Of a stretch of DNA of 24,154 nucleotides, positions 1,467-17,708 are shown piece by piece; the first letter of the stretch is position 1; each line of letters opens with the position of its first letter. The stretch is from the IMG/VR virus record IMGVR_UViG_2684622510_000004, one strand, 5' to 3'. Position numbers and translations under genes: made by a program. Under the pieces are notes generated by a model. The model saw nothing but the letters and a program-made list of their open reading frames with translations. It had not been told where the DNA came from and searched no databases. This DNA is from a virus. Its lineage: Duplodnaviria; Heunggongvirae; Uroviricota; Caudoviricetes.

Positions 1467-2680
1467 ATGACCGAATCCAGCGATTACGAATCCGTCCAGG
1501 TCTTTATCGGCGTTGATGTCGGTAAAGATACGCATCACGCTGTAGCCATTAATCGTTCAGGTAAACGCCTGTTCGATAAAGCATTACCCAACGACGAAAA
1601 CAAACTCAGGTCGCTAATATCTGACCTGAAACAACATGGTCAGATACTGCTGGTTGTTGATCAGCCAGCTACCATCGGTGCGTTACCTGTCGCCGTTGCC
1701 CGCTCAGAAGGAGTCCTTGTCGGATACCTCCCTGGACTGGCCATGCGCCGCATAGCCGACTTACACGCCGGTGAAGCTAAAACTGATGCTCGTGACGCTG
1801 CCATCATTGCCGAAGCTGCCCGTACCCTGCCTCACGCGCTACGCACGCTGAAACTGGCTGACGAGCAAATCGCCGAACTCTCCATGCTCTGCGGCTTCGA
1901 TGATGATCTTGCCGCACAGACAACGCAGGCCAGCAACCGTATCCGCGGCCTTCTGACCCAGATACATCCGGCACTGGAGCGCGTTCTCGGTCCGAGACTT
2001 GATCACCCGGCGGTACTCGATCTTCTCCAGCGATATCCCTCACCAGAAAAACTCGCTTCGCTGGGTGAGAAGAAGCTGGCAGCCCAGCTCTGCAAACTTG
2101 CGCCTCGTCTGGGTAAACGCCTTGCAGCAGACATAGCTCAGGCACTGGCCGAACAAACCGTCGTCGTTCCCGGCACGAATGCCGCTGCCGTAGTACTGCC
2201 ACGTCTGGCACTCCAGCTCATCACGCTGCGTAAGCAAAGAGACGAGGTGGCGCTTGCGGTAGAACAGCGAGTTCTTGCTCACCCTCTTTACCCGGTCCTG
2301 ACCAGTATGCCCGGAGTCGGTGTCAGGACCGCAGCCAGACTCCTCACCGAGGTCGCCTGCCGCGCCTTCGCCTCTGCCGCGCCTTCGCCTCTGCCGCACA
2401 TCTCGCTGCTTATGCTGGCCTTGCGCCGGTAACTCGGCGATCCGGCTCGTCAATACGCGGTGAGCATCCCTCGCGACGGGGTAATAAAGCTCTCAAACGG
2501 GCGTTGTTCCTGTCGGCCTTCGCCGCGCTCAGGGATCCGCTCTCCAGGGCTTACTACACCCGCAAAATGAGTCAGGGAAAACGACACAATCAGGCGCTTA
2601 TCGCCCTGGCGAGACGACGCTGCGACGTTCTGTTCGCCATGATGCGCGACGGGACTTTTTATACCCCGCAGGCGTCATAA
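1467..2680 (+). pseudogene. IS110-family DEDD transposase/recombinase, frameshifted
   Basis: N-terminal MTESSDYESVQVFIGVDVGKDTHHAVAI... is a typical IS110 DEDD start. The ORF terminates prematurely at 2432. Removing one copy of the 17-bp duplication at 2361-2394 restores the conserved C-terminus ...AFASAAHLAAYAGLAPVTRRSGSS... running to the stop at 2678-2680. Confidence 0.7.
2361..2394. repeat. perfect 17-bp tandem duplication (cgcgccttcgcctctgc x2) inside the transposase gene
   Basis: Read directly: 2361-2377 is identical to 2378-2394. Length is not a multiple of 3, so it frameshifts the gene. Confidence 0.9.
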
Positions 2681-2717
2681 CATGCTTGACAACTTAATAG
2701 GGGCACCCCCCTAGAAC

Positions 2718-2757
2718 AAAAAAAACCTTAAGAACCAGACTATTATGGCTGGTTCTT
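2718..2757 (-). terminator. terminator-like hairpin (stem aagaaccag/ctggttctt) followed by a T8 run on the minus strand
   Basis: Stem 2730-2738 pairs with 2749-2757; A8 run at 2718-2725 on the plus strand gives a U-run after the hairpin on the minus strand. Could be the IS right end or a relic terminator. Confidence 0.35.
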
Positions 2758-2883
2758 GTACGGAGGATTTGTTATTGTACAACTCTTCTATCTGGTATAT
2801 TTACGGATAGAACTGTTCAGGCTACTCAATCCTTTTTAAGTACAAATGAACAGATAGAAATAGTTATATTGCAAGGAGCTATC

Positions 2884-3672
2884 ATGCACACTGAGTATAT
2901 ATGGCGATACCTTGACATAGAGAAATTCTCTATGTTACTCGAACAAAATGCTTTATTTTTTTGCTCAGCAAAAAATTTTGAAGATCCGTTCGAAGGTGAA
3001 TTTGCTTGGGGACATACTGGCTATAAAAAATTCATTGAGACACAGGAAAAACTATGCGCTACTTATGGTGCCGGCATGGACTTAGATCCTTTCATTGCAT
3101 TCAATTTAAAGACACTTAAGGAAATAAGCGAGAGGACATATATAAGTTGCTGGCATTGTAACGAACATGAATCTGAAGCTATGTGGAAGCTGTATTGTAA
3201 AAACCCCGCTAAAGGCGTTGTCATAAAATCAAAGAAAAAAAACCTCCAAAGCCAACTTGAAAATAATAATCTAAACAAACTACAATTAAAACACGTAAAA
3301 TACGTCAAAAATTTCTGGATAAAACAATACAATCCAGAATCAGATGTATTCTTTAACAAGAGACCATCTTTCGAATACGAAAAAGAGTTTAGAGCTATTT
3401 TTCAAGAGAATACCTTTAACACTCCACCTGTAAAGGGAAAACTAGTCCCTGTATCTCTTAATAATCTGTTGGAAGAAATAAGGATTTCACCTTTCGCAGA
3501 TAAGGATTTCAAAAATGAAGTTTTACAAATTTCAAAAAAACATGGACTAGATCTGAAAGTCAAAAACTCTGAAATTGAAATGCATCCCATCATGCATGTT
3601 GAGGAAGAAATAATTGCAGAAGGCCCCAATTGGTATCAGTCAAAAATCAGATTGGCAATACGTGATGCTTAA
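2884..3672 (+). CDS. DUF2971-like hypothetical protein (AT-rich accessory gene)
   Basis: AAGGAG at 2873-2878 with a 5-nt spacer to ATG 2884. N-terminal motif ...LFFCSAKNFEDPFEGEF resembles the DUF2971 'FxDPFE' signature. Visibly AT-rich compared with flanking genes, convergent with tfa. Confidence 0.55.
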   Translation: MHTEYIWRYLDIEKFSMLLEQNALFFCSAKNFEDPFEGEFAWGHTGYKKFIETQEKLCATYGAGMDLDPFIAFNLKTLKEISERTYISCWHCNEHESEAMWKLYCKNPAKGVVIKSKKKNLQSQLENNNLNKLQLKHVKYVKNFWIKQYNPESDVFFNKRPSFEYEKEFRAIFQENTFNTPPVKGKLVPVSLNNLLEEIRISPFADKDFKNEVLQISKKHGLDLKVKNSEIEMHPIMHVEEEIIAEGPNWYQSKIRLAIRDA

Positions 3673-3775
3673 TCTTATATTGAAGTTTTTTATGTCTCCT
3701 GCTGAAACTAGCTAAAATTTACCAAGCCGCAGCACGTTATTGCATACAACGTGTATGCGGCGTATCTCAAAACGA

Positions 3776-4360
3776 TTACTCCATAACAGGGACAGCAGGC
3801 CACTCAATATCAGGTGCAGTTGATGTATCAACACGGTTCAGCAACACCCGATACTTTTTCCAGGCTTCCAGCAACGAGGTTTCTCCCTCCGTTGCGATTT
3901 CCAGATCTGCAGCATCCTGAAGTGGCGCAATATGCTCACTGGCTACCTGCATCAGGCTATTTTTTGTTTCTTCCGCCTCCCGGATCCGGAACAGTTTTTC
4001 TGCTTCTGCATCTTTCACCCAGGTTGTGCCGTTCCACTTCTGAAACTCCCCTTCCGGGGATAACCAGGTGACATTTTCCGGTAATGAGCCGAGTTCAGAA
4101 ATAAATAACGCGTCGCCGGAAGCCACGTCATAGACGGTTTTACCCCGATGGTCTTCAACGAGATGCCACGATGCCTCATCACTGTTGAAAACAGCCACAA
4201 AGCCAGCCGGAATATCTGGCGGTTCAATATCGGTACTGTTTGCTGGCAGACCTGTATGAGGCGGAATATATGCGTCACCTTCACCAATAAATTCATTAGT
4301 TCCGGCCAGCAGATTATAAATTTTTATGGTCCGTGGTTGTTCACTCATTCTGAATGCCAT
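3776..4360 (-). CDS. tfa: tail fiber assembly protein (Tfa family)
   Basis: 194-aa product [34 protein letters not shown]... typical of lambdoid Tfa chaperones. ATG overlaps the stf stop (TAATG) at 4358-4362. Confidence 0.85.
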
Positions 4361-7125
4361 TATGCAAGCCTCACAATGTAGTTAAATGCGATGTTTTTGA
4401 CGGTGTTTTCCGCGTTACCAGCAGCGTTAACGGTGATGGTGTGTCCATGTGAGCCAATCGCAACAGAGTGCGTATGAGCACCAATACCGACAGTATGTGC
4501 GTGAGCACCTGCAGATGCAGCTGTGCCGCTGACACTATGAGTGTGCGCTCCTGCAGCACTTGTATTCACACTGGCCGCAGACACTACCTTATGTACTGAC
4601 CCATTTTGTGACCACTGGCTGACTGCTGATGCGCCTGTGACACTATGAGTATGGTTTCCGGCACTTGCGGCTGTACCGCTCACACTGTGCGTATGCGCCC
4701 CGGTGTTATTCGTGGATTTAGTGCCGTAATCAAACGACGATGTGGTTTTCGTCCCCAAATCCGTACTGGATGCGCTGGCGCTGTGGGTGTGCGATTTAAT
4801 GCCGTCCTGTTCCTGAGACAATACGGCCCGACCACTGGCAGGTTTGCCCTTAATCGTCCAGCCACGCATATCAGGGATCACGCCTGACGGATAAGCGGTT
4901 GCAAGTTTCGGGTAAGCAGATTTGTCAAAAGTCTGCCCCTGCATCAGGGCATAACCAGACGGAACGGTATCTGATGGCCACGGGATTGGTGCGCCAGGCG
5001 GATAAAACTGCTCTGATGGCGTATAGAGTGAATAAACTGTACCGTCCGTTAACCCTTCCGGCTTATTAGCAGAATATGCTGGTGACGTATGAATAGTCAC
5101 GCTGGCATTACTGGTATAATCCCATTGAATATTTACACCAGTCGCATAATTTCCGATTGCAACGTAAATATCGTAAGTATCACCAGATGTATTGACCCAG
5201 GCAAAATTTGTAAACCCTGTCGATGTGCGCTGCCATAAAGCACCAGTAATCCCCTTCGGATTACCATTACCTGCACGCAAAACAAGTTCAGATATACCTG
5301 CCTGTTGAGGTGACCCCACGTTAAATCCCGCGCCACCAATCAACGTAATTGAAACAACAGAACTCGCCTGTGGCATGGTTACCGTTGCTAATTTGAACCA
5401 ACCAGCACCACCGCTGAATGACATTGTTGTTGAGTTAAGCGTACCAATATCTTTCGGCGTCAGTGTTATATCCGCTGAAAGCGCCTTACCATTCACCTTA
5501 CGGGCAGAAGGTACCCGACCATTCGCATTATCATTAGCTGCTTTCACTGCTTTCGGTGTCGCGGCAAGCGTTTCAGATGCGCTGTTGGTTGCACTACTGA
5601 GCTGGACAATTCCTTTTTGTGCTGTCGTAGCGTCCTGAGCGGTATATTTCCCGTTAGCAAGGTCATAGGCTGCCTTTACCGACTTTGGCGTTGCCGCCAG
5701 CATTTCAGATGTGCTGTTGGTCGCGCTGCTGAGCTGAACTATCCCTTTCTGTGCTGTCGTTGCATCCTGTGCGGTGTATTTCCCGTTAGCCAGGTCATAC
5801 GCGGCCTTAACGGCTTTTGGCGTTGCCGCCAGTGACTCGGAAGTGCTGTTAGTCGCACTGCTGAGCTGTACTATCCCCTTTTTCGTCGTGCTCGCATCCT
5901 CAAGCGCCACGGCGGATGCAATATCCTCTGCCCGTTTTGCCGCTGTCTCAGCGCGCGTTGCTGCGGATTCTGCCGTACTTTTGCTCTGTGCTGCCGCTGC
6001 CGCACTGCCAGCAGCCTCTGTCGCCTTCGTGGATGCCGTCGTGGCGCTGCCCCTCGCTGCTGACGCCTGTCTGGTCGCCTCATCTTTTGAAGCAGACGCC
6101 GATGAGGCCGATGACGCCGCCGAACTGGCGGACGATGCGGCAGCCGTTTTTGAGGATTCTGCGCTGGTTTCCGACGCTTTCGCGTTCGTTTCGGATGTCT
6201 TCGCTGCGGAAGCTGACCTCGCTGCTGCGCTGGCCTGTTCAGTGGCTTCGCCAGCCTTCGTTGTGGCTGTTGAAGCGGATGATGCGGCGCTTTCTGCCGA
6301 TTTTCCGGCGGCGATGGCACTGGCTGAGGCCTGTCCGGCACTTGTTGACGCGGCACTGGCAGACGACGCAGCCGCTGTTTTTGAGCCTGCCGCAGCTGAG
6401 GCGCTCTGTCCCGCTGCCGTCTCAGAAGACCTGGCGTTTGTCTCAGACGTCCTTGCCGCCTTCGCGGAATTTCCTGCCGCCGTTGCCGAGGAAGCTGCAC
6501 TACTGGCGCTTGATGATGCGTTCGTTTCTGATGATTTTGCCGCCTCTTTTGAAGCCGACGCATCCCAGGCTGAGGTGGCAGCTTCTGACGCTTTCGTGGT
6601 CGCGGTGGATGCAGAAGTGGCGGCTGATTGTTCTGACGCTGCCGCATTCGTTTCTGACGTTTTCGCCGCACCGGCACTGGTAGCCGCCGCGCTTTTTGAG
6701 GACTCTGCAGCGGCAGCACTTTTTGAGGCTTCAGTGGCCTTTGTTGATGCCGTTCCTGCGCTGGAAGACGCTGACTGAGCCGACGACGCGGCCTGTCCGG
6801 CTGACGTGCTGGCTGCACGTGCTGAATCTGCAGCATCAGTCGCACGGGTTGCCGCCTCACTGGCAGATGTGCTGGCATCACTGGCTGACTTCTTTGCGGC
6901 TGCCGTGTTCTGTGCCACCACGGACGCGTTACGCGCCACCTCTTCCACCATCAGTTCAAAACGACGCAGTGCCTCCGGACGGGCATCATCCTCCGTCATG
7001 GCACCGAGAAAATCATTCAGCGTACCGGGTTGAGAATCTTCATACACGGTGATGGTCCCGGCATGTGACGGCGGGAATCCCTCCACCAACAGAATAACGC
7101 TGTACTGACCGTACTCAACGTCCAT
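4360..7125 (-). CDS. stf: side tail fiber protein (Stf-like), N-terminally truncated remnant
   Basis: 921-aa Ala/Ser-rich product with three 44-aa tail-fibre repeats ([37 protein letters not shown]) and a His-rich [10 protein letters not shown]-terminus. The first in-frame Met (MDVEYGQYS) corresponds to an internal position of full-length Stf, and an in-frame stop lies 5 codons upstream. Confidence 0.8.
5500..5895. repeat. three tandem ~132-bp repeats inside stf
   Basis: Period 132 bp read directly (e.g. gctgttgg at 5581-5588 and 5713-5720; gtgctgtt at 5711-5718 and 5843-5850). These encode the repeated 44-aa tail-fibre units. Confidence 0.75.
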
Positions 7126-7625
7126 GCTGTAACGCCCGGCTTCTCAATAGCTGCCAGCAGCGGGCTAATCCACAGAATGGCCTGACAATACGTTATTGAG
7201 CGGGTGGTAACGGCGCTATCACTGGCTGCGTCAACGTTCCTGGAATCGGTGTGCATTGCGCTGGCACGTAAACGGTTCGCGTAGTTGAGCAGCCCACCAG
7301 CGACATCAGCAGGAACAGGCATATCACAGGTTTTTTCACGACGGAGAATCTCTCGGTATTCGATAACAGTTTTCTCGGTGCCGGTATCAATCAGCGAGTT
7401 AAGACGGTTGGTGTTCTCTGCTACCAGGTTAAACCGGTTGAAGTTGAAGGCTTGGGTAGCTATGACGGTCGCCTGTAGCGCGTTGTCGCTGCGCAGTACC
7501 CGGATGTCACTTTCAGATATGGTCAGTGCTGCATTGCTGCGTGCCAGCAGAACACAGAGCACCGCGATGATAATTACGACAACCACCAGCAGAACCGCAA
7601 TAATCGCAATTTTGTTGGGTTTCAT
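7017..7625 (-). CDS. Rz-like i-spanin; 3' end reads into stf-derived sequence in another frame
   Basis: N-terminal TM anchor ([27 protein letters not shown]) followed by a coiled-coil periplasmic region. Start overlaps the endolysin stop (TGATG). After about codon 160 the ORF is translating the stf junction region. Confidence 0.5.
7193..7339 (-). CDS. Rz1-like o-spanin lipoprotein embedded in the +1 frame of Rz
   Basis: GTG start gives [17 protein letters not shown] (lipobox LVGC) followed by a Pro-rich mature peptide ending ...APLPPAQ, entirely inside Rz. The start codon choice is my inference. Confidence 0.5.
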   Translation of the reverse strand: MKKPVICLFLLMSLVGCSTTRTVYVPAQCTPIPGTLTQPVIAPLPPAQ

Positions 7626-8191
7626 CAGAACACTCCCGGCGTTGTTGCAGGCGTTCCAGGGTTAAGTGGCCCAAATCCATCGTTGAGATTTTGCGGATTC
7701 TCACCCCACAGGCAAACTTCGCGCTCAATCTCGCGGCGGGTGATCAGTCCTTTCCACTGCTTACCGCCAGCGTATGTCCAGCGACGTAGCTGGTCACATG
7801 CGCCTTTGATATCACCCTGGTTTATTTTGCGAAGAAGCGTCGATGTTCTGAAATTGCCAGCACCCACGTTGTAAACGAACGAGTAAAGAGCGCCGCGCGT
7901 TGTTTCCGGTATATCGACTTTGATGTACGGGTTAATTTGTCTGGCGACAGTGGCAAGGTCTTTATTCAGGAGGGCTTTGCATTCTGCTTCGGTATACGTT
8001 TTACCGAGCATAATGTCTTTTCCGGTGTGCCCGTAACATACAGTCCATACGCCAACGATATCTTTATATGGTATGTAGCTGACACCTTCCAGACCATCGT
8101 CACCACTCGGACCAGTGATGAGCACAGACGCTATGGCAACAGCCCCACCACCAATAGCAGCTGCAACAGCCTTGCGTAATGATGGCGACAT
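7625..8191 (-). CDS. SAR endolysin (T4-lysozyme type, GH24; phage 21 R-like)
   Basis: N-terminal signal-anchor-release segment ([18 protein letters not shown]) and the E-x8-D-x5-T catalytic triad ([17 protein letters not shown]). Start overlaps the holin stop (TAATG). Confidence 0.85.
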
Positions 8192-8406
8192 TATTCACCT
8201 CTCGCAGCCTTACGCTTATCTTCTTTAATCTTGAAATAAAGGTTTGTCAGGTACGTCAGCAGGCCAAATACCAGACTACCCAGCACACCTATTGCCGCCC
8301 ACTGTGATGGCGTGACTTTATCGAGCAACTGTAAAAACCAGTAGCCAGCACTGCCTGCAGAGGTGCCATAGGCGACACCTGTTGTTAACTTATCCATTGA
8401 TTTCAT
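8191..8406 (-). CDS. class II pinholin (phage 21 S21-like, dual-start MKSM motif)
   Basis: 71-aa product [71 protein letters not shown] closely resembles S21 as I remember it. RBS GAGGTGG lies upstream of ATG 8406. Confidence 0.8.
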
Positions 8407-8473
8407 AACCCCACCTCGCAGATGCGGGTGCTGTGTAATGGAAATAAAAAGGCCACCTGACGTGGCCACCAGA

Positions 8474-9526
8474 TTATTTCCCCACCAGCTCGTTTATCTC
8501 TTTCACCGTCTGGTTAAACCGCTCTGACTCAAGCTCAACACCTAAGGCCCGACGCCCCAGCGCCATTGCTGCTTTTATTGTGGAACCGGATCCCATAAAA
8601 AAATCAGCAACCAGATCACCAGGTCGACTACTGGCATTGATTATTTGCCGGAGCATATTCGCAGGTTTCTCACACGGATGTTTACCCGGGTAGAACTGAA
8701 CGGGTTTATGCATCCAGACATCGGTATAAGGCACGGAGACTGATACGGAGAAATAGCGCCGGAGAGATTTAAACTCATCCAGCAATTCAGAATATTTGCG
8801 ATTCAGTGAATTATAAGATGCCACCAGTTGGTGGTGTGGTTGTTCCAGTTGTTGTTCCTGAAACTTCTCTGCCGCTATACGGGAAAACAGTGCCTGTAAC
8901 TTCCGGTAGTCAGCCTCATTCGGCAACTGCCACTGACTGGCACCAAACCAGTGGGAAACCATATTTTTCTTACCTGTGGCTTCGGCAATCTGTTTTGCCG
9001 TTATACCCAGTTCGGCACGAGCATCCCTGAAATACGATATCAGCGGTGCCATTATGTGCTGTTTGAGTTCCCTTTCTTTTGCCGCATAGCCGTCACTTTT
9101 GCCGCGATATGGCCCCTGGTAATGTTCAGCAAACAGAACGCGCTCTGTGGCAGGAAAATATGCGCGCAAACTTTCTTTATTACACCCATTCCAACGTCCG
9201 GACGGCTTCGCCCAGATGATATGGTTAAGCACATTGAAACGTTCACGCATCATGATCTCGATATCAGATGCCAGGCGATGTCCACAGAACAGGTAAAGGC
9301 TTCCGGCAGGTTTCAACACCCGCCAGAACTGGGCCAGACAGTGGTCCAGCCACTTAAGGTAATCTTCGTCCCCTTTCCACTGATTGTCCCAGCCGTTGGG
9401 CTTCACTTTGAAGTACGGTGGATCGGTAACAATCAGATCAATGGAGTCATCAGGCAGGGACTGAATAAAATGCAGGCAATCAGCGTTGATTAAATCAACA
9501 CTGTTTATTTTTACAGTATTTTTCAT
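8474..9526 (-). CDS. DNA N6-adenine methyltransferase (orphan, phage-type)
   Basis: 350 aa with a DPPY catalytic motif near the N-terminus (VTDPPYF) and an AdoMet-binding FxGxG motif near the C-terminus (DFFMGSGST). Confidence 0.85.
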
Positions 9527-9660
9527 GGATCAGTAAGCGTAACTCTGGTAGGCTCACTCTGCTTTTGCGCTAAAGCAGTGGGCCATGGTTCGCTTGTGAC
9601 CAGTAAGCATGAGCGAATGGCTGGCAAGTGCTACCAACACCCACCAGCCGCCCATTTTCA

Positions 9661-9688
9661 CAAATTAAAAGCCCTTCATTGCTGAAGG
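9661..9688 (-). terminator. rho-independent terminator-like hairpin (ccttc-agcaat-gaagg followed by GCTTTTAATTT on the minus strand)
   Basis: Read directly; the stop codon of the small ORF lies within the stem. Confidence 0.4.
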
Positions 9689-9870
9689 CGTCTGTAACAG
9701 CCGAACTGGTAATCTGCCAGCCCCGCCATAACCAGCTGGGTCAGTATTAACTGACAGCGTTCGCGTGAAAGGTATGTGTTTTGTGCAATCTCCCCGACTG
9801 TTGCCGGTTCGATGCTTAATTCATTAAAAACAACTTTCGCCGTTTCTGTCATATCTTGCTGTTTTAGCAT
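9676..9870 (-). CDS. small hypothetical protein, possible winged-helix fold
   Basis: 64-72 aa ORF (start at 9870 or 9894, weak RBS either way); product ...ATVGEIAQNTYLSRERCQLILTQLVMAGLADY. Lies between two minus-strand terminators; coding status uncertain. Confidence 0.35.
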   Translation of the reverse strand: MLKQQDMTETAKVVFNELSIEPATVGEIAQNTYLSRERCQLILTQLVMAGLADYQFGCYRRLQQ

Positions 9871-9990
9871 GTCTTTTTCCCTTCTGGTTAACATGACATA
9901 CCAATAACTCTTGTCTAAAAAGCCAGCAAGATAAAAAGTCAGTATTCACGACCACCAGCGTGTTTACCGTACTGCTCTTGGTTTACAGGT

Positions 9991-10017
9991 ACAAAAAACC
10001 CGCTCGACGGCGGGTTT
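9991..10017 (-). terminator. rho-independent terminator (8-bp stem aaacccgc/gcgggttt followed by T-run on the minus strand)
   Basis: Stem 9996-10003 pairs with 10010-10017, loop tcgacg; A-run on the plus strand upstream gives a U-tail on the minus strand. Possibly the late-operon tR'-type terminator. Confidence 0.5.
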
Positions 10018-10062
10018 AAGCTGTGTGGCGAAGTAACCACTCTTAACACGATACAATTTTTT

Positions 10063-10091
10063 TTGCGTACGCGTTAGTTTTTTATTATTTT
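10063..10091 (+). promoter_or_regulatory. candidate sigma70 promoter for the moron operon (-35 TTGCGT, 17-bp spacer, -10 TATTTT)
   Basis: Hexamers read directly in the AT-rich region about 45 nt upstream of ATG 10136; not validated. Confidence 0.3.
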
Positions 10092-10135
10092 ACTTTTTGA
10101 TACTATCGGCGTGGTTACAAACAAGGAGAACAGCA

Positions 10136-10399
10136 ATGAGTAACTACTTGGAAGTTAAGAGAAAAATTGGTCAATATGCATGTGTTACTCGGTGGGGTTT
10201 CCCCTGTGCCGAGCGTGAAATCACTTTGATACAAAATGACATTAACTCCGCGATTCAAAGTGGTAAAGTTATAAGTCGTAGCATGCTCCAAGGCATTATC
10301 AGCCGTCATGTTCCCAATACCCATTTCTTAATCACCGACAGTGTCGACAACTCTGATCTTAACACTGCATTAAGAATGCTGGCGCCAAAACAAAAATGA
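10136..10399 (+). CDS. hypothetical 87-aa protein (moron gene 1)
   Basis: AAGGAGAA RBS 5 nt upstream of ATG 10136. Stop overlaps the next start (ATGA at 10396-10399). AT-rich; no family recognised. Confidence 0.5.
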   Translation: MSNYLEVKRKIGQYACVTRWGFPCAEREITLIQNDINSAIQSGKVISRSMLQGIISRHVPNTHFLITDSVDNSDLNTALRMLAPKQK

Positions 10400-11136
10400 A
10401 TAATGATGTGTTTCAGATCAGCCCCGACGAAGTAACGTCGGAGCTGATTTCTGCAAAGGAAAGATTTTTACGTGGTATTCAGCCATACTTGTGTAATGGT
10501 ATATCAAACCTTGCTGACCTACATGAAATTCAGCAGCACGCTTCAAAATATTTTAATACCGCTGTTAAATTAGTTCAAAAAGTAGATTTATGTAAACTGG
10601 ATGACAATAAGACATTTGCCATTTCCTTAGTTGGAGACTGTCGAGCGGTTCTGGAAACTTATTTAGAATACTACGACATGATGGTGTCAAACATTAAATG
10701 CCTAGAAATTGATCCAAACAATATTGTACTGTATAGCAAAGATGGTCTATCAAACCTCCAAAGAATCATTAAAAAGTATTCATCAAAAGATATTTACACA
10801 CCTATTATTGCTGAATTTGAGTCTCGAAATTTGCCAATCGATGGATTTACTATAGGTACACCAATGAATTGGAAATTAATTGTCACTGCCATTATTGGAT
10901 TTTTAAGTTTTTGTATTTTTTTATCAATTACGCTGCTAATACCAGATTTGAATGAATTTCAAAAGAAAATGATTTTCTCTTTATATTTCATGAGTGCGGC
11001 CGTTGGAATCTCGCCATTCATTGCAAATAATATAAAGGTCAATGGGAAGATGGCATTTCGTGGTTCGGAATTCAAAGTATCTGCTGTTGGTGGTTTAGCA
11101 GCATTGATTGTTTCTTTCATCATCCAAGTAATTTAG
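10396..11136 (+). CDS. hypothetical membrane protein, ~160-aa soluble N-domain plus three predicted C-terminal TM helices (moron gene 2)
   Basis: Translationally coupled to gene 1. Hydrophobic stretches WKLIVTAIIGFLSFCIFLSITLLI, MIFSLYFMSAAVGISPFIA and VSAVGGLAALIVSFIIQVI. AT-rich; followed by a hairpin terminator. Confidence 0.55.
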   Translation: MNNDVFQISPDEVTSELISAKERFLRGIQPYLCNGISNLADLHEIQQHASKYFNTAVKLVQKVDLCKLDDNKTFAISLVGDCRAVLETYLEYYDMMVSNIKCLEIDPNNIVLYSKDGLSNLQRIIKKYSSKDIYTPIIAEFESRNLPIDGFTIGTPMNWKLIVTAIIGFLSFCIFLSITLLIPDLNEFQKKMIFSLYFMSAAVGISPFIANNIKVNGKMAFRGSEFKVSAVGGLAALIVSFIIQVI

Positions 11137-11137
11137 C

Positions 11138-11159
11138 AAAGAGGCCCTAAGGCCTCTTA
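11138..11159. terminator. hairpin (aagaggcc-ctaa-ggcctctt) between the convergent moron operon and Q
   Basis: Perfect 8-bp inverted repeat read directly between the stop at 11136 and the Q stop at 11163; could act bidirectionally. Confidence 0.4.
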
Positions 11160-11162
11160 TAA

Positions 11163-11504
11163 TCATAGCATTGATAGCACACCACTAACAAAACCTAATG
11201 CTGTTTGCATATCTTTTCTAATTGTCCCATCAGAACACTTACGCTTCTTCGCAATGGTGCGTAATGAAATACCAATAACAAAGTGGGCAATAATTAACTC
11301 ATATTCTTCTTGTTTATATTTACGTAACCGTGCGACACAACCGTCTATCATGATCCCTTCATCATCATCACACTGGAGACGTGTTTTTTTACCATGAGGT
11401 AAAAGCCCCTTGAAGCCTGCTGCTATCGGCTGCCAATCCACACTACTGTTATCTGCTGCAGCCCATGCTCCCCAGCGGTCCAAAACTTCATACATGTCAC
11501 GCAT
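11163..11504 (-). CDS. late-gene antiterminator Q (QuuD/Phage_antitermQ-like)
   Basis: Product MRDMYEVLDRWGAWAAADNSSVDWQPIAAGFKGLL...QCDDD...C resembles the small Q proteins of DLP12/P22 type as I recall them. GGAG RBS upstream of ATG 11504. Position upstream of the lysis genes fits. Confidence 0.6.
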   Translation of the reverse strand: MRDMYEVLDRWGAWAAADNSSVDWQPIAAGFKGLLPHGKKTRLQCDDDEGIMIDGCVARLRKYKQEEYELIIAHFVIGISLRTIAKKRKCSDGTIRKDMQTALGFVSGVLSML

Positions 11505-11521
11505 CAACTTTCTCCACAAAA

Positions 11522-12517
11522 TCAGGCCAGCACGCCAATTGCCAGCGCACGATCGATAAAACGAAATATCAACTCCAGCTGGGAGCCATACTTCTCTTCA
11601 AATGCCACGGTATCCGCATGCAGCTCGTCGTGATGCTTTCTGCACAAAGGCAACACAAAGAGGTCATGTGCTTTTGTACCCATTCCACCCTGACCGTGGC
11701 CTATCAGGTGGTGGGGATCATCAGCAGGCTTTCCACAACATGCACACGGCTGAGTCTTAACCCAGCGCGTGTACTTTTCATTAACCCAACGGCGACGTTT
11801 GGGGCGTAACATAAAAGACTCCGGCGACTCCGGATCCACTTCCAGCGCCAGCACCTTTTTCGCTTTATCCTGGATGATGCTGGTGGCAGGAACCGAAGGA
11901 ACAAGGTCACTTTCCCGGGTGACAGACGGCAGAACAGGCTTCGGTAATCTCAGTGCCTTACGGGCTGCACTTTCCGGTAAGGCATCCGCCAGGTCATTAC
12001 GAACCAGCCACCAGCACAGTTCCGGCATTGTCACAACGTGACTATCATCAAAACCGAGATCACGGCGCACAACAGATAAAACCCAGCGGGCACAGTTATC
12101 CGTTGCCATTGATTCCAGCCGTTCCGTGAACTGGTCACGCAACTGGTTATCGCAGTGCCAGCACAGACGGATTGCGCCCGGCGCATGGCGCGTTGTGGTC
12201 ATGTTTTCGCTGTGCCAGTCGGAGTGAGGCCACTGACAGCCTTTTTCACGAAGTAACCAGCTTTCAAGACATTCCACGCCACCAGCACGACGGATCACTG
12301 CCTCATTGCGGAACACGGCCCGAACGGCAGGATCATCCGCCAGCGGTTGTGATGCTGCCGGAACGGCACCACTGGCGAAACATGAATAACGTTCCGGCTC
12401 AGGCTCCAGCAGGACACGCCCCTGCATAAACAGGGGCATCAGCTCTGAACCTGGTCTGAACAATACGATCCCCATACGCGGGGCAATTTCAGGGGTCAGT
12501 AGTGCTCTCACGGTCAC
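11522..12517 (-). CDS. DUF968-like nin-region protein with C-terminal Cys/His (HNH-like) motif
   Basis: 331 aa (GTG start); C-terminus ...CACCGKPADDPHHLIGHGQGG...LCRKHHDELH. Family assignment from memory. Confidence 0.45.
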   Translation of the reverse strand: MTVRALLTPEIAPRMGIVLFRPGSELMPLFMQGRVLLEPEPERYSCFASGAVPAASQPLADDPAVRAVFRNEAVIRRAGGVECLESWLLREKGCQWPHSDWHSENMTTTRHAPGAIRLCWHCDNQLRDQFTERLESMATDNCARWVLSVVRRDLGFDDSHVVTMPELCWWLVRNDLADALPESAARKALRLPKPVLPSVTRESDLVPSVPATSIIQDKAKKVLALEVDPESPESFMLRPKRRRWVNEKYTRWVKTQPCACCGKPADDPHHLIGHGQGGMGTKAHDLFVLPLCRKHHDELHADTVAFEEKYGSQLELIFRFIDRALAIGVLA

Positions 12518-12518
12518 C

Positions 12519-13316
12519 TCAATGAACGGTATCGAGCAGCTTTAACAGCTCAGGGAATCGGGATTCGAAGAAATGCGGCTGCGTCTCGCGCGGATTTGCG
12601 GGACTGGTGATGTTCTTGCCGAACATGCAGCCTTTCGCTGTCAGCGACCAGAATTTTTTGATGTTGTTAATCGCGGTACGGCTGTATCGTTCGCGTTGTT
12701 CAACGATCCCCAGCTTCACCATCTGGTGATATGCCTGATTAGCCGTCAGGCGGATACCATACTGCTTCAGCAGTGCACTCAGCGACAGCGTGGGGCGACT
12801 TGAGCCATCGTGTGCATCAGCAGGAGCATCAATGGCATAGCGCGGTGCCAGATTCGGTAAGCCAACAGCCTCCTGGAGTTTCTGACAGGCCCCAAGCACA
12901 GATGAGTTAGACAGGTTTAACTCCCGACGCATAAAGTCCAGCAGAATCACTCCAGCCTGCATCTTGTCAGCAGCCTGTCCGGATAATTTTTCCGGTGCGC
13001 TGGTTACCATGTCGAAAGTACGGATCACCTTCAGATGGAATGACGGGCTGATCCACATTGCATAGGCATACACCAGTTCCTTACAGACATACGTCCCCTG
13101 ATTATTTCCGCCGCGAATAACGTTAACTGGCTCTATATTGACCGAGTTGCAAATCTGCAACTCGCTTATTAAACGTTCAGTTTGCTCATTGCGGAGCCAG
13201 AATGCAGGCTTATGCTTATCCAGAGAACCGGCAGCCCTGTGCAGATCGTTCAGGCTGTAACGCCCATAAGCATCACGACGAACTTCAATACCATCAATGA
13301 CCATCAGATTATTCAT
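12519..13316 (-). CDS. KilA-N domain protein
   Basis: N-terminal MNNLMVIDGIEVRRDAYGRYSLNDLHRAAG...KPAFWLRNEQTERLI...GGNNQGTYVCKELVYAYAMWISPSFHLKVI is a typical KilA-N fold sequence. GAGGAG RBS upstream of ATG 13316. Confidence 0.6.
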   Translation of the reverse strand: MNNLMVIDGIEVRRDAYGRYSLNDLHRAAGSLDKHKPAFWLRNEQTERLISELQICNSVNIEPVNVIRGGNNQGTYVCKELVYAYAMWISPSFHLKVIRTFDMVTSAPEKLSGQAADKMQAGVILLDFMRRELNLSNSSVLGACQKLQEAVGLPNLAPRYAIDAPADAHDGSSRPTLSLSALLKQYGIRLTANQAYHQMVKLGIVEQRERYSRTAINNIKKFWSLTAKGCMFGKNITSPANPRETQPHFFESRFPELLKLLDTVH

Positions 13317-13335
13317 ACTTCGTTTCTCCTCTTGA

Positions 13336-13725
13336 TCAGGCGGCTGCACCCGCCGTTTTCTCGTACTTACTGATAGTGATCTCGACCTTCCCTTCCGGGA
13401 TAACCGGTCCCCACTCCACCAACATTCTTTTCACCTGGCTGTCGTCTTCCCACACACCCGCGTGGGTCAGGGCGTCAAACAGCGCCTTGTTATAGTTGTC
13501 CAGATCGCGGATCCGGTTATCCGGAGGAAACAACACGATCTCCACTGAAGCAGGTGCCGACGTTGGTTTCGGCAGACGACGTAACTGCTCAACTATTGCT
13601 GCACACGCCGCGCTCTGGAATTTTCGCCCCGCCGCGCTTATCAGGCTCTTACCAGCAAACGCCCCTTTGTTGGGGTGTCGCCAGTACGTGTTCACGCTGG
13701 GCGGAAAAGGCAGGATCAGCTTCAT
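13336..13725 (-). CDS. rusA: RusA-family Holliday junction resolvase
   Basis: 129 aa with the conserved RDLDN and ALFDALTHAGVWEDDSQV motifs. Confidence 0.8.
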   Translation of the reverse strand: MKLILPFPPSVNTYWRHPNKGAFAGKSLISAAGRKFQSAACAAIVEQLRRLPKPTSAPASVEIVLFPPDNRIRDLDNYNKALFDALTHAGVWEDDSQVKRMLVEWGPVIPEGKVEITISKYEKTAGAAA

Positions 13726-14048
13726 ACTTTCAGGCCCCTCTCATGTAACCAGTAGGTTGCACGCAGCCTTGCGTTTTCCTCACCGGCAAGCAGTGCGCGG
13801 ATAATCCCGACCGCCTCGCTGTCGTCGTCCTTCACCGCAGTATGAAGCGTTATCCCCCGGGCCACGCCACGCTTTATCGTGATGACGCCTTTTTTCTCCA
13901 GTGCGCGAAGATGCTCTACCGCTGCATTCACTGAACGGTATCCCAGCATGGTTGCCACCTCCTGATTGGTTGGCGGAAAGCCACGCTCTTTCTGATAAGA
14001 AATCAGCATATCCAGCACCTGCTGCTGGCATTGAGTTAACGTCGTCAT
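13722..14048 (-). CDS. LexA N-terminal-domain-like winged-helix DNA-binding protein (no peptidase domain)
   Basis: Product MTTLTQCQQQVLDMLISYQKERGFPPTNQEVATMLGYRSVNAAVEHLRALEKKGVITI...GITL parallels the LexA DNA-binding domain. Start overlaps the upstream stop (TAATG). Confidence 0.5.
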   Translation of the reverse strand: MTTLTQCQQQVLDMLISYQKERGFPPTNQEVATMLGYRSVNAAVEHLRALEKKGVITIKRGVARGITLHTAVKDDDSEAVGIIRALLAGEENARLRATYWLHERGLKV

Positions 14049-14536
14049 TACGCCCCCACGTAATTCCCTGACAGATACCACTCATCACCCGATACAGCGC
14101 GCTTGCTGCTTTTCCGTAAACACTGCTCACGACGCGCCAGAAAATTGTTTCGTTCTGGCTGGGAGTGGCTTTCACGGAATGCCGCCATCCACACCGTTGC
14201 AGCACGACGGTATAAGCCCCTGGACTCCAGTTTTTCAGCCTGGCGGGTCAGGCACAAAATCACCCGGGGATCGTTAGTGCCGACATAGAAATTGCGCACA
14301 GATCTGGTTTCTCGAACTGGTTGTGGTTCCAGTTCCTGCGCTCTCTCAGTCAGGCGCGGGAAATGTCTGCGTGTATCCCCTTCACAACGGTGAGCCACAC
14401 GCCCACTCTGACGTAACTTGCTTGCTGACTGCAGAACGCGCTGCCGTGAGTAACCAGCAAAAGCATCCGCAATGTCTCCGGAAGTACACCCCGGATGGGC
14501 TTCAATGAATTTCTGAACGTCATTCAAAAGACTCAT
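14048..14536 (-). CDS. PerC-family (Pch-like) putative transcriptional activator
   Basis: C-terminal motif AEKLESRGLYRRAATVWMAAF...ARREQCL matches the PerC hallmark (LE.KGLYRRAA..W) as I recall it; the N-terminal ~60 aa look like a winged helix. Confidence 0.45.
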   Translation of the reverse strand: MSLLNDVQKFIEAHPGCTSGDIADAFAGYSRQRVLQSASKLRQSGRVAHRCEGDTRRHFPRLTERAQELEPQPVRETRSVRNFYVGTNDPRVILCLTRQAEKLESRGLYRRAATVWMAAFRESHSQPERNNFLARREQCLRKSSKRAVSGDEWYLSGNYVGA

Positions 14537-14538
14537 GA

Positions 14539-15480
14539 TCACCCCCTGAATCCTGCCGGGATCTGGCTGTAGTCCACGTTGTCGTAACTGGATTTGAAGT
14601 ACGGGTCTTCGCGTTTTTCGGTGTACGTGCTTACGGACGGCGATAAGCGCAGGGAAAGCTCATCCCATTTTTCCCGCAGCTTCGACGGGCTGAGCACGTT
14701 ACGGCACCAGAACGGATCGCGGCTGACGCGGCTGTACATCTCGCAGATTTGTTTGTGAGTACGACCATCCTGCACACACATCAGGCGAATTTCGTTTGCC
14801 CAGGCTGTCCAGTTCGGTTCTTTGGGACGAACCACCTCGCCGTCACATTCGGCAGCCTGCTCGTACAGGGCGATGATTTTTTTCCAGAGCCACTGTGCGC
14901 AGGTCAAATCATCCTGCGTCCCCCACTGGCGCTTTTTAGGGCTGAATACAACCGCATCAGGATGGCGAGTTAAAAAATCCTGTTCATCCATCTGCGTGTC
15001 CGGTTGCGAAGCGTCCGGACGAGAGGGTTTTTTATCTGACGGATCATGTTTTGATTTTACTGACGGATCCCCGCCAGATTCTGACGGGTGAAAACCCGCT
15101 TTTTTGCCAGATTTCGACGCATCAAATTTTGACGGGTCAGATTTTGATGCGTCAGATTTTGACGGGTCAGAATCTGACAGTTGAGAAAATGCCGCTGCCT
15201 GAAGCTTCGCAACGTTAAGCTGATAAACATTCGACGCATTGCGGTTACCCTGGCGACGCGCCTTACGAGTTAACCAGCCTTCTGCTTCCAGCCGTGCGAT
15301 AGCCGTTCTGACGGTGCTCATCCCCGCGCCAATCTGGCGGGCAATGGTTTCAATTGATGGCCAGCACACACCTTCGTCATTACTGAAATCAGCCAGGCGG
15401 GCCATAATTGCCACGCTGGATAACTTCATGCCTGACGCAGCGCAACCATCCCATACATAGCCGGTTAATTTAGTGCTCAT
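14539..15480 (-). CDS. replication initiator: N-terminal HTH domain, iteron-encoded repeat linker, C-terminal DnaT-like domain
   Basis: N-terminus ...SVAIMARLADFSNDEGVCWPSIETIARQIGAGMSTVRTAIARLEAEGWL. C-terminus ends ...YSQIPAGFRG, like E. coli DnaT (...SQIPPGFRG). Central DPSKSDASKSDPSKFD repeats correspond to the DNA iterons. Confidence 0.7.
   Translation of the reverse strand: MSTKLTGYVWDGCAASGMKLSSVAIMARLADFSNDEGVCWPSIETIARQIGAGMSTVRTAIARLEAEGWLTRKARRQGNRNASNVYQLNVAKLQAAAFSQLSDSDPSKSDASKSDPSKFDASKSGKKAGFHPSESGGDPSVKSKHDPSDKKPSRPDASQPDTQMDEQDFLTRHPDAVVFSPKKRQWGTQDDLTCAQWLWKKIIALYEQAAECDGEVVRPKEPNWTAWANEIRLMCVQDGRTHKQICEMYSRVSRDPFWCRNVLSPSKLREKWDELSLRLSPSVSTYTEKREDPYFKSSYDNVDYSQIPAGFRG
15034..15185. 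repeat. iteron array (putative prophage replication origin) inside the initiator gene
   Basis: About 8 copies of (a)ttttGACGGgtcag-like units, the last four at a strict 15-bp period (15126, 15141, 15156, 15171). Analogous to the lambda ori inside gene O. Confidence 0.6.
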
Positions 15481-15489
15481 GACCGACCT

Positions 15490-15828
15490 CTATTTCCCTG
15501 AATTTACGACGAAACTGTTCGAGCGGGCTGAAGCACTCATGCTCATAGCCTTCGCGGAGGTAGATAACCCGTTGTGTTTCCGGCTCCCAACGAATGACTC
15601 TGACGGGCACTCCGTAGTGATCTTTGAACCAGCGGTTAACTTGTCGCAAAGGACTGTCTCCTTTTGCCGGTTGAAATCGCCCACAGCCCACTCTGCAAAG
15701 CTGTGGGTTACAATTTCCCTGTCACCTGGTACATTCACTGCATAGCAATACTCCACCTTCGCTTTTCCACCCGGTACAGGAAGTGCAATCAGTTGCGAGC
15801 GACGGTAGTGTGTTGTTAAACTGTTCAT
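15490..15828 (-). CDS. hypothetical protein (frame choice uncertain)
   Basis: ATG 15828 with GGAGAAA RBS, overlapping the upstream stop (ATGA), supports this frame. The product is low-complexity at its C-terminus, and the alternative frame (15470-15691) gives a more protein-like sequence, so a frameshift is possible. Confidence 0.3.
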
Positions 15829-16376
15829 GCGTTAGTTTCTCCACAGTCACGACACGCCACGGCGCCCGGAGCTGCACACTCGCGGGCGTCATTACTTTCT
15901 GAAATGCAAAAAATTTTGTAGACCAGTGCTGCATGCTCCTGCAGCTTCGAAATTGAGAGGTACAGCTCGTCATTAATTGCTGTCTTCTCATGCGGTTCCA
16001 CTACACCGTCTTCGATTGCTGAACGAATCTGTTTTGAATAACTGCCGATCTGTTCAATGACTTCCAGCAGACGCTGGTTAATATCGGCGTTGTCCACATC
16101 CTCGACGTCAGGAAGAGACACAAAGACGCCATTTGCAGACTGCGCCACAGCATCAGCAATGAAGTGAGTTCCACCAGCACGTTGCAAAATCATTGCCCAT
16201 CCCAGCGGGAAAATCTGATCGCCATCGGCACGAAGGCGGTTAAATAATGCGTTCTCTGTTACATCCAGCCAGTCAGCAGCTTCAGCGTAACCCCCCGGTA
16301 ACGCTGCGATAGTTTTTCTGACAGCTTTCACGTACCACTCAGGCTGTTTGTCTACTTTCCAGTGATGCTTACCCAC
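15825..16376 (-). CDS. CII-like regulatory protein (phage 186 CII / CP76-family-like)
   Basis: 183 aa, GTG start with a strong GGAGGTG RBS. Position immediately after cro and overall resemblance to the 186-type CII family; assignment tentative. Confidence 0.4.
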
Positions 16377-16629
16377 GGTTCACCTCCTGTTCCTGTGGTT
16401 TAAACCCATTCTGGTTTTGGCTAGATTGAAAACGTGCCGGATAAAGAATCTGCATTTCGCTGATTTCACCCTTAAAAAAATTGGCTAAACGTTCTGCAAG
16501 CTCGATAGATGGAATCTGTTCCAGCCTCTCAATACGACTCAACGTCGCTGGATTGACTTGAACACCCGCAGCAACATGCTGCAAAGTGAAACCATGCGCC
16601 TTACGCACATTTCGTAATTGTGATTGCAT
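16369..16629 (-). CDS. cro: Cro-like HTH (XRE-family) repressor
   Basis: 86 aa with an HTH (GFTLQHVAAGVQVNPATLSRIER). GGAGG RBS; divergent from cI across an operator region. Confidence 0.7.
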   Translation of the reverse strand: MQSQLRNVRKAHGFTLQHVAAGVQVNPATLSRIERLEQIPSIELAERLANFFKGEISEMQILYPARFQSSQNQNGFKPQEQEVNRG

Positions 16630-16726
16630 ATAACCTCCAAATATTGCGCGTTATGCATGTTATTTCACGCAAGTATTTTGCGCAAGTTGATTTGCTTATC
16701 ACGCAATAAAGAAATGTAATAAACGC
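16630..16726. promoter_or_regulatory. OR region: divergent PR/PRM promoters with TTGCG/CGCAA operator half-sites
   Basis: Plus strand (cI): -35 TTGCTT 16692-16697, 17-bp spacer, -10 TGTAAT 16715-16720, leaderless at ATG 16727. Minus strand (cro): -35 TTGCGC (plus-strand 16680-16685), 17-bp spacer, -10 TAACAT (16657-16662). Operator-like TTGCTTATCACGCAA at 16692-16706, plus further ACGCAA/TTGCG half-sites. Confidence 0.5.
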
Positions 16727-17419
16727 ATGAACATAGGAAACCGAGTCAGACAACTTCGCCAAGCGAAGAACATGAAAATCGCCGATCTCGCTGAAGCAAT
16801 AGGAGTAGATGCGGCGAACATCTCGCGCTTAGAAACGGGTAAGCAGAAACAATTTACCGAACAAACACTGAGTAATATTGCCAAGAGCTTAGGTGTTGAT
16901 ATTGCTGATCTCTTTACCTCTGCCCTCAAAAGTAATACTGTATATAAAAACAGTAATAATGAGGATGTTGCGCAGGTGAAGGATGTGTTCCGTATTGAAA
17001 TGCTGGATATCAGTGCCAGTGCGGGAAATGGCCTTATCCAGGGCGGTGATGTCATTGATGTGATTCATGCCATCGAATACAGAACTGATAATGCTGTATC
17101 AATGTTCGGCGGACGACCAGCCAATCACATCAAAGTTATCAACGTTCGTGGGGACAGTATGTGTCCAACCATTGAGCCAGGAGATCTCATCTTCGTTGAT
17201 GTCAGCATCAATCAGTTTGATGGTGATGGTATATATGTCTTTGGTTTTGATGACAAAATATACGTTAAAAGACTTCAAATGATTCCTGACAAACTGCTGG
17301 TGATTTCTGATAACCAGATTTACCGTGAATGGGGAATTACTAGCGAAAACGAACACCGATTCATGGTCTTTGGAAAGGTCTTAATCAGTCAGTCGCAAAC
17401 CCTTAAGAGACATAATTAA
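16727..17419 (+). CDS. cI: CI-type prophage repressor (N-terminal HTH_XRE, C-terminal S24 LexA-like autopeptidase)
   Basis: 230 aa; HTH IADLAEAIGVDAANISRLETGK; C-terminal peptidase domain with GDSMCPTI (Ser) and VKRL (Lys). No SD before the ATG, consistent with a leaderless PRM-type transcript. Confidence 0.85.
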   Translation: MNIGNRVRQLRQAKNMKIADLAEAIGVDAANISRLETGKQKQFTEQTLSNIAKSLGVDIADLFTSALKSNTVYKNSNNEDVAQVKDVFRIEMLDISASAGNGLIQGGDVIDVIHAIEYRTDNAVSMFGGRPANHIKVINVRGDSMCPTIEPGDLIFVDVSINQFDGDGIYVFGFDDKIYVKRLQMIPDKLLVISDNQIYREWGITSENEHRFMVFGKVLISQSQTLKRHN

Positions 17420-17438
17420 CTTCAATATCCCATCCATC

Positions 17439-17461
17439 GGCCACCGAAAGGTGGCTTTTTA
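17439..17461 (+). terminator. rho-independent terminator after cI (ggccacc-gaaa-ggtggc followed by TTTTT)
   Basis: Read directly, 20 nt after the cI stop. Confidence 0.6.
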
Positions 17462-17473
17462 TCACCCATCATT

Positions 17474-17525
17474 TTGCACATCTCGCAAAATATCACTTGC
17501 GCATCTCGCATTTTAATTTTATCTT
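17474..17525 (+). promoter_or_regulatory. OL/pL candidate: two 15-bp operator-like sites and a rightward promoter
   Basis: TTGCACATCTCGCAA (17474-17488) and TTGCGCATCTCGCAT (17497-17511) share the TTGC-N6-CGCAA form of the OR site. Candidate -35 TTGCGC 17497-17502, 17-bp spacer, -10 TATCTT 17520-17525. Confidence 0.4.
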
Positions 17526-17684
17526 TTGTTCCAGACCAACTACAGGATTACAACAAAATCTGGTTGCAACACGGTGCATGGTGCATGTGTCGTAAGCGGT
17601 CAGTAAATGTCAAAAACGAACAGTCAGGACGACCAAGAAGTAGCCGCCTTGGGCATATGAAGTCCAAGATGATTCGTTAGCAAC

Positions 17685-17708
17685 AAAAAAGCGCCCTATA
17701 GGACGCTT
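17685..17708 (-). terminator. terminator-like hairpin downstream of the antisense gene (gcgccc-tata-ggacgc, U-run on the minus strand)
   Basis: Imperfect stem with an A6 run on the plus strand at 17685-17690. Confidence 0.35.

Follow-up and report, generated by a model that had tools for sequence, protein, structure and literature searches.

We analysed two neighbouring genes of a lambdoid prophage, found in a 24,154-nucleotide (nt) stretch of viral DNA (Caudoviricetes; IMG/VR record IMGVR_UViG_2684622510_000004) that is referred to, at its full length, as the window. The genes are a yfdN-type gene (14048..14536, minus strand; 162 amino acids (aa) from an ATG, or 164 aa from the GTG at 14542, which is the RefSeq start), encoding a PerC-like protein, and a gene encoding only the DNA-binding domain of LexA (13722..14048, minus strand; 108 aa). 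The closest described systems are gp6 of the Bacillus thuringiensis tectivirus GIL01, LexA of Escherichia coli, and the PerC and Pch proteins. A truncated LexA homologue, gp6 shares 44% identity with the host LexA's DNA-binding domain, binds GaCACAnnTGTGaC and activates P3 (PMC6182141). Like the window protein, it is a phage LexA winged helix without a peptidase domain, and in both cases the gene lies among early genes beside replication functions, in a temperate phage tied to the host LexA (PMC6182141). The two differ in that gp6 has 66 aa, lacks a C-terminal hairpin, has K38 at the position of N41 and switches on a late promoter, whereas the window protein retains four of the five LexA contacts, has a conserved tail of 35 residues and belongs to a Q-controlled lambdoid phage; they are about 35% identical, through the shared LexA fold only. 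The N-terminal cleavage fragment of E. coli LexA (residues 1-84) is about 50% identical to the window protein, without gaps over residues 2-70, and S39, N41, A42, E45 and the wing RGI are common to both. In contrast to LexA, the window protein has no S24 catalytic/dimerisation domain (no Ser119, no Lys156) and a helical tail of its own, and valine replaces both E44 and P40.

With PerC of enteropathogenic E. coli (EPEC), encoded on pEAF, and PchA-C of enterohaemorrhagic E. coli (EHEC), YfdN shares the C-terminal hallmark LE..GL.RRAA..W, above the gathering score, and the pch genes, like yfdN, are prophage-encoded. However, PerC and Pch comprise a single domain (about 90-104 aa), to which YfdN adds a winged helix, a linker and a C-terminal peptide. 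Pch relieves silencing by H-NS, StpA and Hha (PMC4764244), and activation of LEE1/ler via H-NS relief has been shown for PchA-C (PMC4764244, PMC5931665). The ANR family (Aar-type AraC negative regulators, NF033650) also consists of small helical proteins; its match to YfdN (residues 96-142, E 1.2e-4) is weak, with a score of 21.9 bits that is under the curated cutoff of 32. The YfdN of the cryptic prophage CPS-53 in E. coli K-12 is an orthologue, as indicated by its 164-aa annotation and its position after the O remnant yfdO; CPS-53 differs in that the downstream dam gene is truncated (yfdM) and that the stretch from the LexA-like gene up to the tail fibre is deleted. In earlier work yfdN was called 'the K12 unique PerC homologue' and deleted as a precaution in a ler-lacZ assay (PMC5931665), and over-expression of a UTI89 fragment with yfdN2 and four neighbouring genes caused filamentation, which was not traced to one gene (PMC6206680). 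Our literature search retrieved no functional study of YfdN or the LexA-like protein and no report of LEE1/ler activation by YfdN, and the papers on the replication region of Shiga toxin (Stx) phages mention neither protein.

The 108-aa protein is a genuine LexA DNA-binding domain, in which a conserved 35-residue helical hairpin replaces the S24 peptidase/dimerisation domain. Pfam LexA_DNA_bind (PF01726) matches it over profile positions 1-65 of 65 (3e-19, 69 bits), and phmmer against the PDB retrieved the LexA N-terminal domain (6e-16), again ungapped across residues 2-70. TIGR00498 matches over positions 1-91 of 203 only, and its 70.6 bits are under the equivalog cutoff of 110.95; in PHROGs the protein belongs to phrog_362 ('transcriptional repressor', 1e-58). 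The AlphaFold model (predicted local distance difference test score, pLDDT, about 80) contains a LexA winged helix at residues 1-68 (helices 6-22, 28-35 and 40-52, and two strands), a low-confidence hinge (71-76) and a helical hairpin (75-87 and 93-103). When compared by Foldseek, the winged helix of the AlphaFold2 model lay at a root-mean-square deviation of 0.8 A from DNA-bound LexA (3jso), with 51% identity. No match to Peptidase_S24 (PF00717) was found in the Pfam profile search, and the protein ends at residue 108. These results bear out the initial annotation, made from the sequence alone, in which the protein was recognised as a LexA N-terminal winged helix without the autopeptidase domain. 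They also mean that it cannot be a RecA*-cleavable repressor: having no catalytic domain, it cannot be inactivated by RecA*. The LLAGEE of the window protein aligns to the LexA linker VAAGEP, with A88-G89 opposite A84-G85 of LexA, and this Ala-Gly varies among orthologues (LLANEEN, LLVGEEN). Conservation of the tail hairpin equals that of the DNA-binding domain and extends to homologues of 40-47% identity (mEp390, Klebsiella phages), which suggests a role in dimerisation or partner binding.

LexA contacts bases through S39, N41, A42, E44 and E45 (PMC3091678). Four of these five residues (S39, N41, A42 and E45) are kept in the window protein, E44 being replaced by V; the recognition helix reads SVNAAVEHLRAL, as compared to SPNAAEEHLKAL in LexA, and the wing motif is also kept. 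In the homologues of mEp390 and Edwardsiella EPP-1 the helix reads SPNAAAEHVKAL and SPNAAEDHLKAL, respectively. Since four of the five base-contact residues are kept and the peptidase domain is missing, a RecA-insensitive LexA-type binder is plausible.

Candidate targets for such a binder are found in the same prophage. Exactly two perfect CTGT-N8-ACAG sites occur in the window, and both extend to near-consensus 20-mers. The first SOS (LexA) box, TACTGTATATAAAAACAGTA (16936..16955, 26.9 bits), is located inside the linker-coding part of cI (16727-17419, plus strand), a gene that is divergent from the early-right operon. The other, CACTGTTTATTTTTACAGTA (9499..9518, 22.3 bits), spans codons 3-9 in the gene of an N6/N4 DNA methyltransferase (8474-9526, minus strand), a late-region gene lying between Q and the holin gene. 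For scoring we used a weight matrix derived from literature SOS boxes of E. coli; in 300 Markov-1 random windows the maximum was 18.6 bits, and none of the 300 had two sites of at least 15 bits. The cI box was present in all 80 loci having this cI and is kept in 93%-identical cI alleles despite varying flanks, and the methyltransferase box stands at the start of its gene in 22 related loci. Among the loci with a box-bearing cI, 58 of 63 have the LexA-like gene and five lack it; these are close relatives and do not make up an independent sample. CTGT/ACAG pairs at spacings of 0-16 occurred at chance level except for N8, and no conserved non-SOS palindrome was detected; the fixed spacing of SOS boxes has been attributed to wing contacts (PMC8565304). 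Both boxes are credible targets of the host LexA and possible targets of the LexA-like protein. While neither gene is new, both having RefSeq and PHROGs annotation already, and the analysis mainly confirms that annotation, what is new here is the presence of two consensus SOS boxes in the prophage, that in cI being identical to the umuDC operator (the 20-mer located 20-39 nt upstream of umuD in K-12).

Two further observations concern these boxes. At the cI box, the sequence can be read as a weak promoter (TTTACC at 16913, a 17-nt spacer, and TACTGT at 16936), and downstream of the box a GAGGA occurs at 16962 and a GTG, in frame, at 16976. In combination, these elements could give rise to an SOS-inducible C-terminal fragment of CI. 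Our promoter scan reported no sigma-70-like site at the cI box, beside yfdN or beside the LexA-like gene. A third SOS box, TACTGTATTTATGAACAGTG (21.6 bits), was seen in 10 related phages, in a gap of roughly 160 nt between RusA and a KilA-N variant that is 66% identical; its position is about 10765 in locus L010 and +764 from the LexA-like start in L051 and L052. This third box suggests a LexA-controlled promoter for the (antirepressor-like) KilA-N gene, possibly also for DUF968 and Q. In the window RusA and KilA-N overlap, and both the gap and the box are missing.

The functional pairing proposed in the initial annotation can be judged from the distribution of the two genes. Matches to the 2.2-kb module were obtained in 2745 of 5426 complete E. 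coli genomes (1541 of them with at least 80% coverage) and in 52 phage records, including SfII, SfIV, SfV, mEp460, cdtI and the Stx2a, Stx2c and Stx2k phages; RefSeq names the products 'PerC family transcriptional regulator (yfdN)' and 'LexA family transcriptional regulator/protein'. Of the 80 IMG/VR loci with a LexA-like gene, 75 encode YfdN 5' of it. About 25 of the loci have the two genes side by side (488 nt from start to start), and in about 49 a 650-bp dam gene stands between them (1138 nt), an arrangement seen also in SfII, Stx2a_1447 and 1720a-02; the adjacency in the window is thus the dam-less variant. Synteny is kept in Citrobacter (66% identity) and in Hafnia. At the same nin-like position, a more distant LexA-like gene occurs without a PerC gene in mEp390 (O-like, LexA-like, RusA, DUF968, Q), in Klebsiella ST846-OXA48phi9.1 (DinI, hypothetical, LexA-like, hypothetical, DUF968, Q), in Edwardsiella EPP-1 and in Proteus vB_BPM-V3, where it is beside NinG. 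The reverse is seen in Salmonella ST64B, where YfdN, a Dam-like gene and RusA are present without a LexA-like gene, and in CPS-53 of K-12, which keeps yfdO-yfdN-yfdM and has lost the LexA-like gene. In cdtI only 26 YfdN codons are left and the LexA-like gene is kept, and in Stx2a_WGPS2 yfdN is interrupted by an insertion sequence (IS). An obligate pair is ruled out by the dam insertion and the solo occurrences, in the IMG/VR loci as in the distant phages. Taken together, these results indicate that the two are independent accessory genes, neighbours by chance and separately inherited, and the proposed functional pairing does not hold.

The PerC-family assignment of YfdN was borne out by profile search. 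Pfam PerC (PF06069) matches residues 98-151 only, at 39.2 bits compared to a cutoff of 22.6 (8.4e-10), and the hallmark motif LESRGLYRRAATVW occupies residues 103-116; in PHROGs the protein is phrog_1324 ('transcriptional activator', 3.4e-77). The AlphaFold2 model shows a winged helix at residues 3-59 (pLDDT about 90), a disordered linker (60-89) and a three-helix bundle (90-147), and it is in this bundle that the PerC match lies. The C-terminal peptide WYLSGNYVGA is modelled as disordered, yet it is conserved. By Foldseek, the N-terminal domain superposes on winged helix-turn-helix proteins of the ArsR, MarR and BlaI type at about 2 A; the search yielded generic winged-helix matches only, and no specific structural match for the helical bundle. 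A profile search of 1.84 billion representative proteins gave only 153 matches to the YfdN profile. The whole two-domain architecture, with a C-terminal LAGxFxG motif, is common to about 25-30 clusters of 138-165 aa, and family and tail persist at 25-47% identity. Proteins of 55-104 aa match profile positions 98-146 only, and these are PerC and Pch proper. YfdN is thus a distinct two-domain subfamily inside the PerC family and no orthologue of PerC or Pch. A species-level genome scan gave only 5 loci; YfdN is a small family, restricted to Enterobacteriaceae.

The two open reading frames, of 162 and 108 aa, overlap as TAATG on the minus strand, as first described: the TAA stop of yfdN and the ATG of the LexA-like gene share one base (plus strand catta at 14046-14050), and by our reading of the sequence a GGGGG Shine-Dalgarno element precedes both starts by 4-5 nt. 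Upstream, the O-like replication initiator gene (14539..15480, minus strand; phrog_391, 1.3e-135; HTH_36 and DnaD_N domains) has its stop 2 nt 5' of the yfdN ATG. Downstream, the LexA-like stop overlaps (ATGA) the start of the gene for the Holliday-junction resolvase RusA (13336..13725, minus strand; Pfam RusA 6.1e-15), which follows the LexA-like gene in 80 of the 80 IMG/VR loci. The order on the minus strand is cro, cII/YmfL, DUF4222, the O-like initiator, YfdN, LexA-like, RusA, KilA-N, DUF968/HNH and Q, and the genes of this operon, from cro to Q, are all translationally coupled. Accordingly, the genes for YfdN and the LexA-like protein are accessory genes that belong to the nin-like section of the early-right operon in a lambdoid prophage of the SfII/SfV/mEp460/Stx2 type. 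Since this operon is CI-repressed, both are expected, from gene order, to be silent in the lysogen and switched on after derepression, in lytic development; expression of either gene in lysogens is unlikely. Compared with the Hafnia, Citrobacter and Salmonella orthologues, Ka/Ks is 0.16-0.25 for YfdN and 0.12 for the LexA-like protein, and both are real genes under purifying selection.

The best explanation that we can offer for the locus, with a chance only just short of even, is that two independent lytic accessory genes encode a LexA-type binder and a DNA-tethered, PerC/Pch-like YfdN. Both proteins would be made only once CI repression lifts, and each would act independently of the other. 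The LexA-like protein would dimerise, most likely via its hairpin and/or on the DNA via its wing, bind CTGT-type palindromes in host SOS operators and in the prophage boxes of cI and the methyltransferase gene, and re-occupy sites left by cleaved LexA. The winged helix of YfdN would most likely tether a PerC/Pch-like anti-silencing or protein-binding module to DNA, and YfdN would modulate DNA bound by nucleoid proteins of the H-NS type during phage development. SOS-type binding by the LexA-like protein is favoured because of the near-LexA recognition helix and the fixed box spacing ascribed to wing contacts (PMC8565304). We hold this view tentatively, slightly ahead of a regulator of the gp6 type, the remainder being left to other roles or to no DNA-regulatory role. 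A more far-reaching version, which seems doubtful, is that of a RecA-proof 'mini-LexA': after induction a hairpin dimer would re-occupy canonical SOS operators, shut the host SOS response down, silence LexA-controlled competitors (such as antirepressor-driven prophages and colicins) and act at both phage boxes, where it would, for example, block renewed cI transcription.

Several observations weigh against this explanation. In the Citrobacter orthologue the recognition helix reads SVNTIAGHLRAL, with E45 changed to G and two of the five contact residues kept, and in that of Klebsiella it reads SSKAVLLHLRAL; given these helices and the E44V change, SOS-box specificity does not appear to be conserved family-wide. 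Each box moves with a mosaic module of its own (the cI allele in 28 cases, the methyltransferase gene in 22 and the KilA-N variant in 10), and in 20 of the 47 LexA-like loci with at least 7 kb on both sides there is no phage-borne SOS box, so that dependence of the LexA-like gene on such boxes is ruled out. Kim and Little are said to have found in 1992 that the monomeric LexA DNA-binding domain is a weak operator binder. As for YfdN, it covers positions 5-58 of 90 only in the PerC profile, a tblastn search of plasmids with its C-terminal domain did not reach the PerC of pEAF, and the K-12 protein is annotated as an 'uncharacterized protein'; PchA, moreover, showed no co-precipitation with H-NS (PMC4764244). 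One possible, though rather unlikely, alternative is that the LexA-like protein is a gp6-type regulator of diverged specificity, which recognises a site specific to the phage and activates a phage promoter or sets its timing (e.g., late or in the nin region), with no action on SOS boxes. Gp6, which activates P3, is the only characterised truncated LexA homologue, and it is an activator that binds a non-SOS palindrome (PMC6182141); the variation of recognition-helix residues between orthologues and the many LexA-like loci without an SOS box point the same way, as does the position just 5' of RusA or NinG, DUF968 and Q, which is kept in distant phages. Gp6, however, has changed its contacts (SHKTAHRY) where the window protein keeps four of five, the search for CTGT/ACAG pairs brought up no conserved palindrome other than that of N8 spacing, the operon has almost no intergenic room for a promoter, and late control here is exerted by Q. 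The LexA-like protein may also be no transcription factor at all, and serve instead as a DNA-binding accessory of RusA/NinG and DUF968/HNH, comparable to lambda NinH beside NinG. In all distant homologues examined its gene adjoins RusA (NinG in the Proteus phage) and is near DUF968; gene order in the nin region, however, is conserved for many unrelated genes, RusA is known to act without partners, and we saw no evidence of domain fusion or co-variation, all of which makes such a role very unlikely.

The scenario of the initial annotation, in which the two genes form a functional pair for prophage-to-host cross-talk, fares equally poorly. In it, the PerC-like protein activates host virulence loci while, in the lysogen, the LexA mimic breaks the link between induction and RecA. 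Both domain assignments are correct, the two genes are translationally coupled in the window, and Pch proteins of prophage-like elements do activate LEE1 (PMC4764244, PMC5931665). Against this stand the lack of conserved pairing, the location in a CI-repressed lytic operon with no predicted internal promoter nearby, and the distance of YfdN, a two-domain protein, from PerC, to which, as to Pch, it is related at the profile level only. Nothing links YfdN to virulence loci, and PchD and PchE, which are less Pch-like, barely act on ler, with a two-fold effect at most (PMC5931665). As to uncoupling from RecA, the prophage CI has an S24 domain of its own and is presumably RecA-cleavable; a LexA mimic would therefore not block induction. 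Still less probable is a role of YfdN in replication, as an adaptor like lambda P that docks on the C-terminal tail of the O-like protein. The yfdN gene is directly 3' of the O gene and translationally coupled to it, and no helicase or loader gene (P, DnaC or DnaB) was found after O in the window. The tail REDPYFKSSYDNVDYSQIPAGFRG, encoded at 14539-14613, is shared, just before YfdN, by O proteins with unrelated N-terminal domains (100, 66 and 31% identity, and a 353-aa Citrobacter form). The same tail, however, is common to at least five O N-terminal variants (L003, L086, L095, L100, L101), including phages without YfdN, and is conserved in mEp390 (at the protein level), which has no YfdN, and in cdtI, where YfdN is deleted; the tail thus characterises the initiator family and is no docking site for YfdN, and the docking idea was downgraded. 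The IS insertion in yfdN of Stx2a_WGPS2 also counts against the replication role. So does phage cdtI, which Asakura and colleagues reportedly found (2007) to be inducible and transmissible. Because P, DnaC and DnaB genes are all missing, the O tail probably serves as a peptide that docks a host replication factor. Within the O-like gene, 4.3 tandem copies of a 15-bp unit, CAGATTTTGACGGGT, at 15108-15171 encode a low-complexity DPSKSDASKS linker; these repeats are likely origin iterons inside the initiator gene, as in lambda.

The placement of both genes inside a prophage, as first proposed, was correct insofar as this is a lambdoid prophage, integrated at thrW (tRNA-Thr) and adjoining proA. 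It is, however, a defective deletion remnant without head and tail genes. Over positions 7704-20646 the window shares 99% identity with a prophage of E. coli Z1323HEC0477, and Shigella phage SfII is a close relative. In the part at 1-8469, the lysis cassette (7017-8469) lies directly against a tail-fibre gene that is truncated at its 5' end (4360-7125) and in which the phage_tail_N match begins at profile position 51. Apart from this truncated tail-fibre region, to which a tail-fibre assembly gene (3776-4360) also belongs, the window contains no genes for terminase, head or tail. Past the tail-fibre genes there are a DUF2971 gene, an IS110-family transposase (1467-2432) and a DUF4236 gene, and the layout of the deletion resembles that of CPS-53 in K-12. 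Two opposite-strand genes without a Pfam match, at 10097-11136 (plus strand, between Q and the late region) and at 17747-18526 (minus strand, just past cI), are moron-like insertions, each with terminator-like hairpins of its own.

The most useful new lead from this analysis is the occurrence, in the same prophage, of a captured LexA DNA-binding domain and of consensus SOS boxes, in cI and in the methyltransferase gene. The module is very common, being carried by about half of the complete E. coli genomes, by serotype-converting phages of Shigella and by Stx2a, Stx2c and Stx2k phages. If the LexA-like protein binds SOS boxes, a large share of E. coli strains would carry a phage factor able to rewrite the SOS response during induction, and such binding, if true, would bear on Shiga-toxin release, antibiotic-induced mutagenesis and prophage competition. 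If, on the other hand, the protein acts like gp6, the use of a captured LexA domain as a phage activator would extend from the tectiviruses of Gram-positive bacteria to lambdoid phages.

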